Below, in pieces: positions 20,530 to 25,478 of a stretch of DNA of 25,478 nucleotides. The stretch spans positions 1-25,478 of the IMG/VR virus record IMGVR_UViG_2737471843_000008. One strand, written 5' to 3'. The stretch comes from a virus. Lineage: Duplodnaviria; Heunggongvirae; Uroviricota; Caudoviricetes. The notes under the pieces were generated by a model that saw only the letters and a list, made by a program, of their open reading frames with translations, was not told where the DNA came from and made no database searches. How positions within the stretch are numbered: position 1 is the stretch's first letter; the number at the start of each line of letters is the position of its first letter. A program made the translations under genes and the position numbers.

Positions 20530-20880
20530 TCAATTGATGCGTTCGCGCGCTGTTTTTGCTTTATGACAGGGCCAGCACAGACTCTGCAGGTTACTGTCTG
20601 CATCCGTGCCACCATGAGCTTTCGGAATGATGTGGTCCACAGTTCTGGCTTCAACGGCTCTCCCATTGCGCAGGCAGTTCTGACACAGATGATTATCACG
20701 CTTCAGTATGCGCGCACGTATGGCATCCCATTTCGAGCCATAGCCACGCTGGTGGCGGCTCAGTCCGCGTTGATGCTGTACCCATCCTTCGCCACGATGT
20801 TTATCGCAGTAACCAGAACTGTCTGTGGTTGTACCTGCACATCCACGCTTACGGCAGGCGCGTGGGATTCGTGATGGCAT
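20530..20880 (-). CDS. HNH endonuclease (terminase-associated)
   Basis: 116 aa with Cys pairs 'CRKRGC', 'CQNC', 'CWPCH' and 'DHIIPKAHGG' — an HNH zinc-finger nuclease signature. Confidence 0.85.
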   Translation of the reverse strand: MPSRIPRACRKRGCAGTTTDSSGYCDKHRGEGWVQHQRGLSRHQRGYGSKWDAIRARILKRDNHLCQNCLRNGRAVEARTVDHIIPKAHGGTDADSNLQSLCWPCHKAKTARERIN

Positions 20881-20922
20881 AAATACCTCATACCCTGCGA
20901 AATGTTTACCACGATAAAAAGG

Positions 20923-21405
20923 CTACTTAATGCACTGAGTGCGGATATATTCCTGCGCCCCTTCCAGTTGCATCTGCATCGTCATCAATCGGTCTCTGAG
21001 GGTGAAATAATCCCGTTCAGCGGTGTCTGCCAGTCGGGGGATGGTTGCATTATCCACGCTGGTGGGTCCGGTGGCTTCACGCACGGCTGCGGAGCAACTG
21101 GCATTGACCCGCAGGCGCTTACGGCCAGCGGCAACATCAGCGCGCAGAGTTTCATTTTCAGCTTGCGCATTGGCTAATTCTCTCGAGTACTTTGCATCGA
21201 GCGCAGCAACATCACGCTGACGCTGCTGCATGTCAGCGATGGTGGCGATCGCCAGCTTCAGCTCACTGACTTTTTTATCACGCTGTTCTTTGTAGGCGAT
21301 GGCGTTATCACGGTAATGATTGACCGCCCACGACAGGCAGACGATGATGCAGATAACCAGAGCATAAATAATCGCGGCGACTCTGCTCACTGATCTATCC
21401 ACCAA
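20923..21405 (-). CDS. Rz: i-spanin Rz
   Basis: 160 aa with N-terminal TM segment '[22 protein letters not shown]' and a coiled-coil periplasmic domain, lambda Rz-like; overlaps the endolysin stop. Confidence 0.85.
20985..21170 (-). CDS. Rz1: o-spanin Rz1 (lipoprotein embedded in Rz in the +1 frame)
   Basis: Lipobox 'LAVSAC' then a Pro-rich mature region. Entirely inside Rz. True start probably the internal Met at about 21155. Confidence 0.75.
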
Positions 21406-21920
21406 CAGGCTAATGCGCTTTCCTGGTCACGACGAATAACCTGTCCATAGCAGTTATTTGAACGTATGCGGCAATCGCGCCCACCATCTTTTATCCACCA
21501 GCGAATCGCCTCGCATGCGCCCTTACGATCACCGGCATTCAGCCGCTTATAAAACGTCGACGGAAAACACTTACCGGGGCCAATGTTATAGGGACAAAAT
21601 GACGCGATACCCGCTTTTTGTGGTTCGGTCAGTGGTACTTTAATATTGCGCTCCACCCATGCCAGCGCCTTATCACGCTCAATGGCGTTGACCTGGTCGC
21701 ATTTTTCCTTCGACAGTTTCATACCGGGAAAAACGGGTTTTCCATCCACCATCGTGGCACCCCGACAGATGGTCCAGATGCCGGACCCATCGCGGTATGC
21801 CGTTGTGTGGTTACCTTCTTTTTCATCCAGAAACTGGTCGAGAATATCAGGCGCGGGCGCACCGACGGCAATCAGTGCCAGAACGGCAGCCGACAGGCCG
21901 TATCTGATTTTTGCGTTCAT
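21387..21920 (-). CDS. R: SAR endolysin (phage lysozyme with N-terminal signal-anchor-release domain)
   Basis: 177 aa. N-terminal Gly/Ala-rich weakly hydrophobic segment '[17 protein letters not shown]' then a lysozyme-like body. Pairs with the phage-21-type holin. Confidence 0.8.
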
Positions 21921-21983
21921 GGATATTTATCAGGATTTATCGGTTTCTGCCCACGGACAGGTTTATCTGTTCCGGTCAGTGAC

Positions 21984-22334
21984 TTAAGGTTGTGATTCCG
22001 GAGGAGTCTTCAGAGAACCAGTAATTCTTCCTGGTAGCTTTCCTTTGTAGGTTATCCACACATTCTGCGCATCTAAAATTACGGGGCGCTTTTCCGGCGA
22101 CTGCTCATCCCCTTCACATAACCCGGCAGCAACATCCAGGAAGACCTGTCTGATGCTCCTTCTGGCTGCTGCCTCATAAAACTCCAGCGCGGCACCTTCA
22201 ACACGGTCCAGCGAGATGTCCAGGTCAAAAATTTCGCCGTCAAAGCGTTTTTTGTCCCGTAACGCTAAAGTTACCGTAACTTTATTCTCAAAATTGCGGA
22301 TCCCTTTCACAATCAGTTCATAGTTTTGAGTCAT
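21984..22334 (-). CDS. hypothetical protein inside the lysis cassette (possibly YdfR/DUF1327-like)
   Basis: 116-aa ORF beginning five nt after the holin stop and ending 63 nt before the endolysin start. No recognisable catalytic motif or TM segment. Confidence 0.55.
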   Translation of the reverse strand: MTQNYELIVKGIRNFENKVTVTLALRDKKRFDGEIFDLDISLDRVEGAALEFYEAAARRSIRQVFLDVAAGLCEGDEQSPEKRPVILDAQNVWITYKGKLPGRITGSLKTPPESQP

Positions 22335-22338
22335 TGAA

Positions 22339-22554
22339 TTACTCTCCCCGTGCCGCCTTACGCTTGTCTTCTTTAATCTTGAAATAAAGGTTTGTCAGAT
22401 ACGTCAGCAAGCCAAATACCAGACTACCCAGCACACCTATTGCCGCCCACTGTGACGGACTGACCTGATCAAGCCACTGTAAAAACCAGTAGCCAGCACT
22501 GCCTGCGGAGGTGCCATAGGCAATGCCCGTTGAAATTTTGTCCATGGATTTCAT
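22339..22554 (-). CDS. S: holin / antiholin, phage 21 S-type (pinholin) with dual-start motif
   Basis: 71 aa, '[30 protein letters not shown]...' matches phage 21 S as recalled. Met1-Lys-Ser-Met4 dual start; strong 'GGAGGTGAGG' upstream. Confidence 0.88.
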
Positions 22555-22612: not shown

Positions 22613-22636
22613 TGAAAAGAAAAACCCGCAAAAGCG
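22613..22636 (-). terminator. intrinsic terminator upstream of the holin
   Basis: Minus strand 'cccgc tttt gcggg' followed by 'tttttctttt'. Confidence 0.5.
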
Positions 22637-22712
22637 GGCGAAACGATATATACAGAAAGGAAAGCACTCTATCCAACAAACCACCCACAGTTAATCGGAA
22701 TAAAAGCAGAGT

Positions 22713-22847: not shown

Positions 22848-22922
<75 letters not shown>

Positions 22923-22925
22923 ATA

Positions 22926-23001
<76 letters not shown>

Positions 23002-23003
23002 AC

Positions 23004-23080
23004 TGGACCGCCACCGGGGACTCGAACCTCGCACACTCAACTTAAAGGGTTGACGCTCTTTCCTGATGAGCTAGTGGCGG
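23004..23080 (-). tRNA. tRNA of uncertain identity (anticodon loop 'ccUUUaa'; possibly Lys-like, non-canonical C33)
   Basis: 77-nt cloverleaf with perfect acceptor and anticodon stems, T-loop 'ttcgagt', encoded CCA. Position 33 is C and the T-stem has an A-C mismatch. Confidence 0.5.
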
Positions 23081-23081
23081 T

Positions 23082-23157
23082 TGGTGGCCCTTGCTGGATT
23101 TGAACCAGCGACCTGGCGATTATGAGTCGCTCGCTCTCACCACTGAGCTAAAGGGCC
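23082..23157 (-). tRNA. tRNA with CAU anticodon, ileX-like (probable lysidine tRNA-Ile2, analogous to phage ileZ)
   Basis: 76-nt cloverleaf, loop 'cuCAUaa'. Sequence closely resembles E. coli ileX as recalled. Confidence 0.7.
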
Positions 23158-23355: not shown

Positions 23356-23384
23356 AATATATGCCTTTCAATCTACTTTTGCAA
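23356..23384 (-). promoter_or_regulatory. putative late promoter pR' (with qut region downstream)
   Basis: Minus strand 'TTGCAA' – 17 nt – 'TATATT' at the 3' end of the putative Q gene, followed by tR'. Confidence 0.5.
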
Positions 23385-24063
23385 CACTTTGCTTTGAAAA
23401 TGCCGCCTTTTGTTTTGAACGTGTTCTCATTACAAACAATAAAGCCTCACTATCCAGTCGGTGAAAAATGTGTTTCATTGCAACCCAGTGACGAGTAAAT
23501 GTTTTGGACCAGTTTTTAGTTGTCACTCCCGCCAGTAATGCCAGCTCCTGGTATTCATAACCTTCCCCACCAAAAAGTTCTGCTTTTACTGCCTGCGCCG
23601 CCAGCCAGATTAATTTTTTCAGGCGTTCCTGCGTTTTCCCTGCAATTTTTCTGGTACCTGATTGAGTATTAAATTCATTCCACGCCCACTGTGTTATCGC
23701 GATCTGATATTCCCAACAAATACTCCCGCTGTAACTCCACAACAACCAGGCTTTATGATGTTCTTCAAGAGACAGAACAGCCCGCCGCCACGATGATGTC
23801 GAAAACTCAACCGGGCTGACCAGGGCAATTGATGAGCCTTTCGCCAGTGATTGTTTTCCCGGGATTGGTGGATTATCCCGCGTAATCATTTTTCCGGTCA
23901 CTTCATCTCGGTACCGGATTTTTTTACGCCTGTAACGCCCTGTATCGAACATGGCATTCTCCTGCCAGGCTTCAAGCTGACCTTTTGTTGCCCCACTCAA
24001 ATCAGCGGTGGCGATAATGAGCTGCTCACGCACAAACTGTAAATACTGGTTATTCATGCGCAC
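23368..24063 (-). CDS. putative late-gene antiterminator (Q-like, not lambda-Q type)
   Basis: 231-aa ORF directly upstream of the pR'/tR' signature and downstream of rusA, the canonical Q position. No Cys zinc-finger like lambda Q; assignment is positional. Confidence 0.5.
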   Translation of the reverse strand: MRMNNQYLQFVREQLIIATADLSGATKGQLEAWQENAMFDTGRYRRKKIRYRDEVTGKMITRDNPPIPGKQSLAKGSSIALVSPVEFSTSSWRRAVLSLEEHHKAWLLWSYSGSICWEYQIAITQWAWNEFNTQSGTRKIAGKTQERLKKLIWLAAQAVKAELFGGEGYEYQELALLAGVTTKNWSKTFTRHWVAMKHIFHRLDSEALLFVMRTRSKQKAAFSKQSVAKVD

Positions 24064-24419
24064 TCCAGTTCTGTGATTTTTATCCCCAGCCGCCCACCAG
24101 GAACGAGCTGACCGCGCACAATATTGATTTCATCAAACTGCTCGTCGTCTATGATAAGTCCGGCATGCGTCAGCGCATCCAGTGGTGCTTTCAGGATATT
24201 GTCCAGGTCACGACGGCGCTTATCCGGTGGCTCTGCAATAATCTTTATCGCCAGCCTTCCGGACAGGTTTAATTTCAGCCGCTGCTGGCGAACAATTAGC
24301 GCCACATCACGGCGATAACGCTTTCCGGCCTCCGAGATGAAATACGTATTGCCATGACGTCGCCAGTAGGTATTCACCGTCGGCGGGTAAGGCAAAACAA
24401 ATTCTATGCGTTCAGTCAT
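24054..24419 (-). CDS. rusA: Holliday junction resolvase RusA
   Basis: 121 aa with 'PDKRRRDLDN' and 'GGRLGIKITE', matching the RusA catalytic core as recalled. Confidence 0.85.
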   Translation of the reverse strand: MTERIEFVLPYPPTVNTYWRRHGNTYFISEAGKRYRRDVALIVRQQRLKLNLSGRLAIKIIAEPPDKRRRDLDNILKAPLDALTHAGLIIDDEQFDEINIVRGQLVPGGRLGIKITELECA

Positions 24420-25478
24420 TCATACTTTCCACTTCAGGACACCCGAATTTCTCGCGTGCATTAAAAAACGAATCAGCAACAACAGCTGGCTGCCGTGTTT
24501 TTCTTCAAAATCTTTTACCCCGGCGTGCAGTTCGTTATGACATTTACGGCACAGCGGAATAACAAACAAATCATCAGCCTTTGTTCCCATCCCTCCCAGT
24601 CCATGACCAATGATGTGATGCGGATCATCTGCCTGATTACCGCACGTCATGCATTTCTGCGTTTTTACCCAGCGCGTGTATACAGGCATCTCTTCCCGTT
24701 GTGGTTTCTGGCGCTGGAGATACTGAGCCGGAGACTCCGGATCAACGGCGATGCTTACTAACGTCTTTTCCTGGAGTGGGGGCTGTTGCTGGTGGACGTG
24801 AAGTGGCAGCGCAATATTTTTTGTGCGCTGCTTCAGTATGCTGGTGGCAGTCTGTTCTCCCGGTACGATGTCACTCTCACGGTATACGGAGCGGATTTTT
24901 TCCACCGGTAATCCCAGTGAACGACACAATACAGACTCCGGAAGCGCATCAGCCACCTGATTGCAGACCGCCCACCAGGATAATTCGGCCAGCGATAACT
25001 CCCTCTCCTGCGTACCGCTGATTGCGTGACGGATGACGTCAATCATCCATGCTGACAAGTTTTGATGAGCAAGTTGCTCGAGTGATTCGGATGTCTGGTC
25101 ACGCAGCTGGTTGTCGCAGTGCCAGCACAACACCATTGCGCCGGTACCATAACGGTGAATGACGGTTTCGCTGTGATGATAATCGCCGTGTGGCCACTGG
25201 CAGGATTTAATATGGCGCAACAGCCAGTCAGACAATGCACCAGCACCACCAGCAGCACGAATCACCCGTGCGTTACTGAAAAACGGCAGCAATGTTTTGT
25301 CTTCCACCAGCGGCTGGCGAGCGGCAGGAACGACCCCGGACGGCAGATTACGCATGCTTTTCGGTTCCGGCTCCACCAGTAACCGGGTATTGTGGAATAC
25401 CGGCATGGATTCACGGCCCGGCTTAACGATCACCAGCCCGAGTTCCGGTACCAGAACAGGTCGAAGTAATACCCGCAC
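24420..25478 (-). CDS. DUF968-like (YdfU-like) phage protein with C-terminal Cys/His HNH-like motif; N-terminus probably beyond the window
   Basis: ORF runs to the window edge with no credible in-window start. C-terminus 'CMTCGNQADDPHHIIGHGLGG...IPLCRKCHNELH' is a Cys4/His zinc-binding motif. Confidence 0.5.
   Translation of the reverse strand: MRVLLRPVLVPELGLVIVKPGRESMPVFHNTRLLVEPEPKSMRNLPSGVVPAARQPLVEDKTLLPFFSNARVIRAAGGAGALSDWLLRHIKSCQWPHGDYHHSETVIHRYGTGAMVLCWHCDNQLRDQTSESLEQLAHQNLSAWMIDVIRHAISGTQERELSLAELSWWAVCNQVADALPESVLCRSLGLPVEKIRSVYRESDIVPGEQTATSILKQRTKNIALPLHVHQQQPPLQEKTLVSIAVDPESPAQYLQRQKPQREEMPVYTRWVKTQKCMTCGNQADDPHHIIGHGLGGMGTKADDLFVIPLCRKCHNELHAGVKDFEEKHGSQLLLLIRFLMHARNSGVLKWKV

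Follow-up and report, generated by a model that had tools for sequence, protein, structure and literature searches.

The minus-strand, ATG-initiated reading frame of 116 codons that lies between the holin and endolysin genes of the window, by which we mean the whole stretch of 25,478 nucleotides analysed here, is a real YdfR/DUF1327-family gene of E. coli prophages, and its product is probably an accessory protein rather than a part of the lysis machinery. The reading frame is more than a chance one, because its translation scores 144.3 bits against the Pfam DUF1327 profile (PF07041; cut-off 25 bits, E 1.4e-42, profile positions 1-92 of 93), has hundreds of homologues and is under purifying selection. 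The first-pass annotation had pointed to a similar gene, ydfR, between essQ and rrrQ in the Qin prophage and expected a DUF1327 match if the two were alike; the Pfam search bears this out, and the K-12 locus has exactly that gene order, with a 4-nt gap. The protein also matches PHROG 406/2091, both labelled 'unknown function', and an NCBIfam profile search of it returned no match. At the DNA level the gene is 99.7% identical to RefSeq genes named 'YdfR family protein', a label also used in phage annotations, and identical proteins are present in IMG/VR contigs. By BLASTP, its core aligns with residues 1-74 of K-12 YdfR at 81% identity and 96% positives (E 2e-46), the tails of the two proteins being unrelated. 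The family and its genomic position are already known and catalogued, and since the window copy is near-identical to an annotated family member, it adds no new kind of element.

The DUF1327 family is small and essentially restricted to Escherichia and Shigella. When one genome per species was searched across 185,579 species, members were found solely in Escherichia/Shigella and in two records labelled as Veillonella and Bacillota MAGs, which we take to be mis-binned. The family consists of 313 clusters at 90% identity and 65 representatives at 50% identity among 1.84 billion proteins, and a core-domain profile that included the most distant members gathered 334 proteins and no new branch. Within E. 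coli the gene is common: megablast matched ydfR in 4267 of 5426 complete genomes (79%), with up to nine copies in each. By tblastn, 101 phage records carry DUF1327, including 41 Stx1a and 15 Stx2c phages, and relatives occur at no fewer than 552 IMG/VR loci. Conservation across related lysis cassettes, on which the first-pass reading had been staked, is what we find, the ORF recurring in many of them. One candidate homologue was rejected. P0162, a 3128-aa G2F-repeat protein of the representative library (E 2e-8), is a spurious, repeat-inflated match, its score being built up from six nearly identical stretches that contribute about 7 bits apiece (IFELDLSQAEIVGSELEFF against IFDLDISLDRVEGAALEFY).

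Table 1. Features of the lysis cassette of the window, with coordinates, strand and the evidence for each.
Feature	Coordinates	Strand	Basis
ydfR-family gene (DUF1327), 116 aa	21984..22334	-	PF07041, PHROG 406/2091, RefSeq DNA identity, dN/dS
Conserved DUF1327 core domain, codons 1-74	22113..22334	-	AlphaFold2 and family alignments
Variable C-terminal tail module (EKRPVILDAQNVWITYKGKLPGRITGSLKTPP...), codons 75-116 and stop	21984..22112	-	Low pLDDT; replaced in relatives
Holin-ydfR junction: GGGGAGAG (SD, last holin codons), TAA, TTCA, ydfR ATG	22335..22349	-	Sequence
Phage-21-type class II holin/antiholin (pinholin), Met1/Met4 dual start	22339..22554	-	PF04971
63-nt ydfR-R spacer	21921..21983	-	Last ~25 nt = CCGATAAATCCTGATAAATATCC, conserved AU-rich R leader
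Endolysin R, T4-lysozyme family, RrrQ/933W type, 177 aa	21387..21920	-	PF00959
Rz i-spanin	20923..21405 as listed from TTG; likely GTG 21390	-	PF03245, E 1.3e-46
Rz1 o-spanin lipoprotein, embedded in Rz	20985..21170	-	PF06085, E 4.7e-18

The genes on either side of ydfR are well-defined lysis genes (Table 1). The 71-aa holin matches the Pfam family 'Bacteriophage P21 holin S' at E 3e-36 and shares 94% identity with S21 of phage 21, with the dual start kept. The lysozyme R (E 1.4e-24 against its Pfam family) is 93% identical to K-12 RrrQ and only 34% identical to R21; its translated N-terminus is Gly/Ala-rich and SAR-like, from which we infer that it is a SAR endolysin. The 116-aa ORF is thus wedged between holin and endolysin as the first-pass annotation described, on the minus strand, which that annotation had left unstated. 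The close spacing to the holin that it reported also stands, although the gap from holin stop to ydfR ATG is 4 nt (TTCA) and not 5 nt. A GGAG Shine-Dalgarno motif lies within the last holin codons, 9 nt 5' of the ydfR ATG, and ydfR would be translated from this strong site; cassettes without ydfR appear to use GGAG for the endolysin. Downstream of R, RefSeq annotates the Rz homologue as a protein of 155 aa, which points to GTG 21390, overlapping the R stop as GTGA, as the likely true start of Rz rather than the listed TTG 21405. After Rz come 42 nt (20881-20922) and then an HNH endonuclease gene (20530..20880) adjoining a gene for a P27-family small terminase. In the closest annotated relatives (L005, 11835-12939; L001, 4413-5517), Rz is followed by two extra genes, one of the YfbU family and one hypothetical; both are missing in the window, so that its prophage is without this segment of about 1 kb. 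Farther downstream the window contains an HK97-type head module and a lambda-like tail module, a combination typical of lambdoid mosaicism.

On the 5' side of the holin are a Q antiterminator gene, a promoter-like site, four tRNA genes and a terminator-like hairpin (22624-22639). The tRNA genes (22848-23157, minus strand) lie between the Q/late-promoter region and the holin and are of the types CAT, TTT (Lys), TGT (Thr) and TCC (Gly). ARAGORN assigns the CAT tRNA to Met, and its homologue in strain 4/4 is tRNA-Ile in RefSeq. An Rfam scan of the window returned these four tRNAs and nothing else. Beyond them, 23368-25478 (minus strand) is a Qin-like late regulatory region with a DUF968/YdfU-family gene truncated at the end of the window, and with rusA and the Q gene. 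A search for promoter-like sites within 21387-22554 found none, and the cassette would thus most naturally be co-transcribed from the late promoter. Given the common strand, the 4-nt gap, the Shine-Dalgarno motif inside the holin gene and the lack of an internal promoter-like site, ydfR may reasonably be considered to be co-expressed with the lysis genes. Judging from this anatomy, it would lie on a Q-dependent late transcript in the order Q, promoter region, four tRNAs, hairpin, S, ydfR, R and Rz/Rz1.

Comparison with three known cassettes places the window gene in context. In the Qin prophage, K-12 YdfR (b1555, P76160) occupies the same slot, with the holin stop, 4 nt, the ATG and an RrrQ-type lysozyme gene next. 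However, the K-12 protein ends in a 29-aa tail, EKVESYLQHQYSFKIENP..., unrelated to the 42-aa module of the window, and the Qin ydfR stop overlaps the rrrQ start, where the window has its 63-nt spacer. Phage 21 resembles the window in its gene order S, R and Rz with embedded Rz1 and in its tRNA genes between the late promoter region and S, but differs in having no gene between S and R, in addition to the divergence between its R21 and the RrrQ/933W-type endolysin of the window. The adjacency of S and R in the canonical phage-21 cassette, noted in the first-pass annotation, is in fact an overlap with nothing in between. In the VT2-Sakai/Stx2a-phage cassette, holin and R are 80% and 91% identical to those of the window, and the same S stop, 4 nt and ATG, with GGAG inside the S 3' end, are seen. 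That ATG belongs to R, however; there is no DUF1327 gene, and an ant gene lies between R and Rz.

Such a difference at the slot has a direct consequence for the endolysin gene. In VT2-Sakai the R start codon occupies the ydfR slot and uses the S-embedded GGAG; when ydfR is present in the slot it therefore claims the strong initiation site, so that R has only a leader without a Shine-Dalgarno motif. In the window this leader, the last ~25 nt before the R ATG (21921-21945), is AU-rich, and it is common to all ydfR-bearing junction classes except three rare ones. The terminal ATAAATATC(C/T) recurs in each of the 16 ydfR-bearing classes, regardless of the content of the S-R interval, and in K-12 these same nucleotides encode the C-terminus of YdfR. 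The ydfR stop and the R start are 63 nt apart in the window, and a search for RNA structure in this spacer gave a folding energy equal to that of shuffled sequence (z -0.19).

To describe the slot across relatives, the four lysis proteins of the window were compared by tblastn with 95 fetched loci. In all 93 loci that bear DUF1327, the phage-21-type holin ends just before ydfR and R follows it. Four more phage records and one genomic contig show the same arrangement, the gap being 3 nt in two of them. Altogether, the ydfR ATG lies 3-4 nt past the holin stop in 97 of 97 fetched loci with DUF1327 beside a phage-21-type holin, and the conserved junction reads ...GGAGAGTAA, then TTCA, TCCA or AGCG, then ATG. 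The gene is by no means universal, being found in 101 of 438 phage records with a phage-21-type holin (~23%) and missing from phage 21 and VT2-Sakai. Across the 16 ydfR-bearing junction classes, S stop and R start are separated by 311-1306 nt, and further ORFs, in part on the opposite strand, are often present in this S-R interval. Its two ends are conserved and could act as recombination anchors. In the surveyed loci ydfR is always paired with an RrrQ/933W-type endolysin (89-99% identity), never with R21. Nevertheless, a single ydfR allele of 97-100% identity co-occurs with holins of 79-96% and Rz proteins of 54-99% identity. Co-evolution of ydfR with the holin or the endolysin was sought in the distance correlations of 70 haplotypes, which were weak (ydfR-holin 0.18, ydfR-R 0.31, compared with holin-R 0.46). 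These comparisons indicate that the alleles of ydfR are shuffled independently of those of the holin and the endolysin, despite its position between the two genes.

Structural analysis of the protein separates a conserved core from a variable tail. Alignments of the family show that residues 1 to ~73 are the sole unit common to all members. AlphaFold2 predicts this region with block-mean pLDDT of 78-92 over residues 1-70, as three antiparallel strands (5-14, 18-27 and 34-43) followed by a long helix (50-73), and the remaining 42 residues with pLDDT below 50. This predicted 73-residue N-terminal domain, with its three strands packed on one long helix, would be the functional unit. In the window the tail is the 42-aa EKRPVIL...KTPP module, which is also found on a different N-terminus in P0147. 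Other members have unrelated or extended tails, giving totals of 103, 176/183 (coiled-coil) and 263-287 aa, and core-only proteins of 71-72 aa exist, namely that of phage Evi, P0176 and P0158. The alignments thus indicate that the C-terminal tails are interchangeable modules on a conserved 73-residue domain. No Pfam domain was found in the window tail, nor in the C-terminal extensions of the 169-287-aa relatives, which match only 'unknown' PHROGs.

The first-pass annotation described the product as soluble-looking, and the properties of the 116-aa protein agree with this description (GRAVY -0.40, pI 5.5). Its maximum 19-residue Kyte-Doolittle mean is 0.69, so that hydropathy reveals none of the transmembrane segments expected of a holin or antiholin; no signal segment and no holin match in Pfam or PHROG were found either, and a comparison with the PADLOC-DB defence models returned 0 families at E up to 1. 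A PDB sequence-profile search gave only noise at E>1, and Foldseek of the predicted structure against PDB and BFVD gave nothing at E 1e-3 or below. In structural comparison of the predicted core, integrase cores, Piwi cores and many dsRBDs score about 4, and phiKZ Dip, an RNase E inhibitor, scores 3.9, none of them being a significant structural neighbour. The predicted topology of three strands and one helix fits nucleic-acid binders of the dsRBD-like or half-RNase-H-like type, a likeness that does not imply relationship. The core domain is mildly acidic, and RNA binding is not obvious from its sequence properties.

The ydfR core is under purifying selection, with a constraint three to five times weaker than that on the flanking lysis genes. 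Across 41 distinct alleles of the core, the median dN/dS is 0.29 and the ratio of sums 0.31, whereas the neighbours in the same loci have values of 0.09 (holin) and 0.06 (R).

Divergent members of the family are found outside the slot. P0176 (72 aa, 31% identity) is encoded between tail genes M and L, P0170 (94 aa, 39% identity) between tail genes I and J, and P0158 (71 aa, 51% identity) directly 3' of Rz (loci L100, L101 and L102, respectively). Members outside the S-R slot still exceed the Pfam threshold (39.6 and 51 bits), and all three genes point in the same direction as the late genes. The phages that carry them are lambdoid siphoviruses of enterobacteria without close sequenced relatives. 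With such members in tail operons and after Rz, the core is late-operon cargo whose location is not intrinsically tied to lysis. A two-gene module was also observed at two late-operon sites, namely 2001-2540 of L098 (phage Evi), in the S-R slot, and 449-1001 of L100, between tail genes M and L. It consists of a 72-aa core-only DUF1327 gene and, after it, a convergent opposite-strand ORF of ~100 aa; the convergent ORFs are 61% identical (E 2e-43), their DUF1327 partners just 31%. The convergent ORF has no Pfam match, occurs in one record of the phage collection and is missing from the window.

Several phages encode small proteins, such as T4 Srd, T7 gp0.7 and phiKZ Dip, that bind RNase E and change RNA decay in infection. 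T4 Srd and K-12 YdfR are both reported to target the N-terminal catalytic half of RNase E. Our literature search found data on E. coli YdfR in a single paper, apart from an entry in an envelope-screen table, together with a single paper that mentions DUF1327 and none on ydfR in lysis cassettes. A bacterial two-hybrid screen that used RNase G as bait yielded K-12 YdfR three times, and residues 1-72 of YdfR were enough for the interaction with the RNase in this assay (PMC13232886). Follow-up assays showed stronger binding of YdfR to RNase E(1-597) than to RNase G. FLAG-Rne(1-598) came off together with Strep-YdfR on elution, and the eluate was rich in DNase-resistant nucleic acid (PMC13232886). 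Overproduction of YdfR altered few transcripts and caused no growth defect (PMC13232886). By homology, the core of the window protein may bind RNase E by the latter's catalytic N-terminal half, as well as RNase G and perhaps RNA, and it would then act on RNA processing or decay late in infection, outside the disruption of the envelope by holin, endolysin and spanins. On the other side, the interaction data are two-hybrid and co-elution results obtained with the Qin allele, and since so few transcripts changed on overproduction, a physiological effect on RNA decay is putative.

That YdfR is accessory and not a core lysis component is suggested by the fact that phage 21 and VT2-Sakai lyse without it, by the 101 phage records with DUF1327 against 438 with a phage-21-type holin, and by the independent reassortment of its alleles and the divergent members after Rz and in tail operons. 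The first-pass annotation, on the other hand, suggested a role in lysis timing or endolysin release. YdfR would then be a cytoplasmic modulator of the pinholin/SAR-endolysin pathway, binding, for example, the pinholin at its charged cytoplasmic C-tail or the membrane-tethered endolysin at its cytoplasmic N-terminus. The strict position of the gene, 3-4 nt after the holin stop with R next in 97 of 97 loci, is also predicted by a lysis-linked function, and its pairing with RrrQ/933W-type endolysins and never R21 fits as well. By shifting R from a strong Shine-Dalgarno motif to an SD-less leader, ydfR must alter R expression in cis. The Keio ydfR deletion mutant is listed among the envelope-defective hits in the supplementary tables of a CPRG screen for envelope integrity (PMC3879167), and accessory regulators of SAR endolysins do exist, such as phage Mu releasin as presented in PMC9239132. 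The Keio phenotype could, however, be explained by polarity, as the kan cassette just upstream of rrrQ could drive endolysin expression. Like YdfR, the lambda S107 and S21-71 antiholins, P1 LydB, T4 RI and RIII and Mu releasin have their genes within or next to lysis cassettes and are expressed together with holin and endolysin, but they are mostly membrane-anchored or periplasmic (T4 RIII being the cytoplasmic exception), and all have demonstrated lysis-timing phenotypes, whereas YdfR is soluble, without a membrane segment, and has no known lysis phenotype. The dual start of the holin gene already provides an antiholin. Some three quarters of phage-21-type cassettes (~77% of the phage records with such a holin) are without ydfR, and VT2-Sakai has a 91%-identical R directly after S without it. 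The alleles of ydfR do not co-vary with those of the holin or R, selection on this gene is more relaxed than on the lysis genes, the remote members of the family are found in tail operons or 3' of Rz, and overproduction of the K-12 homologue gave no growth or lysis phenotype in a strain where essQ and rrrQ are present but silent (PMC13232886). In view of these points, a role as a lysis regulator is in our opinion unlikely. Still more doubtful is a reading that would join the two lines of evidence, in which the core, as a ligand of the RNase E catalytic half, links RNA decay to lysis by altering how the late transcript is cut or how stable it is, perhaps at the AU-rich SD-less leader upstream of R. 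If it were true, the endolysin-to-holin ratio, and hence the time of lysis, would be set by YdfR, and both the retention of the gene in the S-R slot in Escherichia and the ability of relatives to work elsewhere in the late operon would be explained.

The alternative that the first-pass annotation itself had offered, a passenger gene, comes closer to what the evidence favours. In its pure form, the gene would be a moron with an unrelated function, such as counter-defence or host takeover, or with none, trapped between conserved anchor genes. The tiny genus-restricted family (65 representatives at 50% identity), its mosaic architecture with swapped tails and extra, partly opposite-strand ORFs in the S-R interval, and the conserved ends of that interval as possible recombination anchors would all suit such a history. 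The same is true of the related genes at classic moron sites in tail operons, of a dN/dS three to five times that of the neighbours, and of a GC3 somewhat below that of R and Rz (0.47 compared with 0.53-0.59). But a dN/dS of 0.3 means that the protein sequence is still selected, and the core is intact in every examined locus, down to 31% identity at other sites. No PADLOC match connects the protein with defence systems, and the K-12 homologue has an experimentally supported partner in RNase E (PMC13232886). We regard a pure passenger as a possibility of lesser weight. It might also be argued that the gene acts only in cis, as a translated spacer that uncouples R from the holin Shine-Dalgarno motif and so sets the S:R ratio, the protein itself being irrelevant. 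This would agree with the taking over by ydfR of the S-embedded GGAG that drives R in VT2-Sakai-type cassettes, with the conserved AU-rich SD-less leader that R keeps in all ydfR cassettes, and with the overlap of the Qin ydfR stop and rrrQ start. Purifying selection on the amino-acid sequence, the conservation of the core at 31-51% identity at sites unconnected with R, its confident predicted fold, and the accumulation of the K-12 homologue as a protein with a binding partner (PMC13232886) make this explanation very improbable.

We lean, tentatively and with somewhat less than even confidence in the whole chain, to the reading that the window gene codes for a small, soluble, cytoplasmic late protein that is dispensable and moron-like, and that its conserved core probably interacts with RNase E, RNA or both. 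The narrower claim, that the protein is accessory and lies outside the lysis machinery, is more probable than this full chain. As such, ydfR would be a dispensable cargo of the late operon that is usually, but not always, carried in the S-R slot. The gene is among the commonest E. coli genes with no assigned function, is carried by Stx1a and Stx2c phages of O157 among others, and belongs to a phage module that ranks with the most thoroughly studied. Should the RNase E link hold for the phage-borne alleles, YdfR would represent, among the late genes of temperate phages, a counterpart of the RNase E modulators of virulent phages, and could bear on late gene expression in Shiga-toxin phages.
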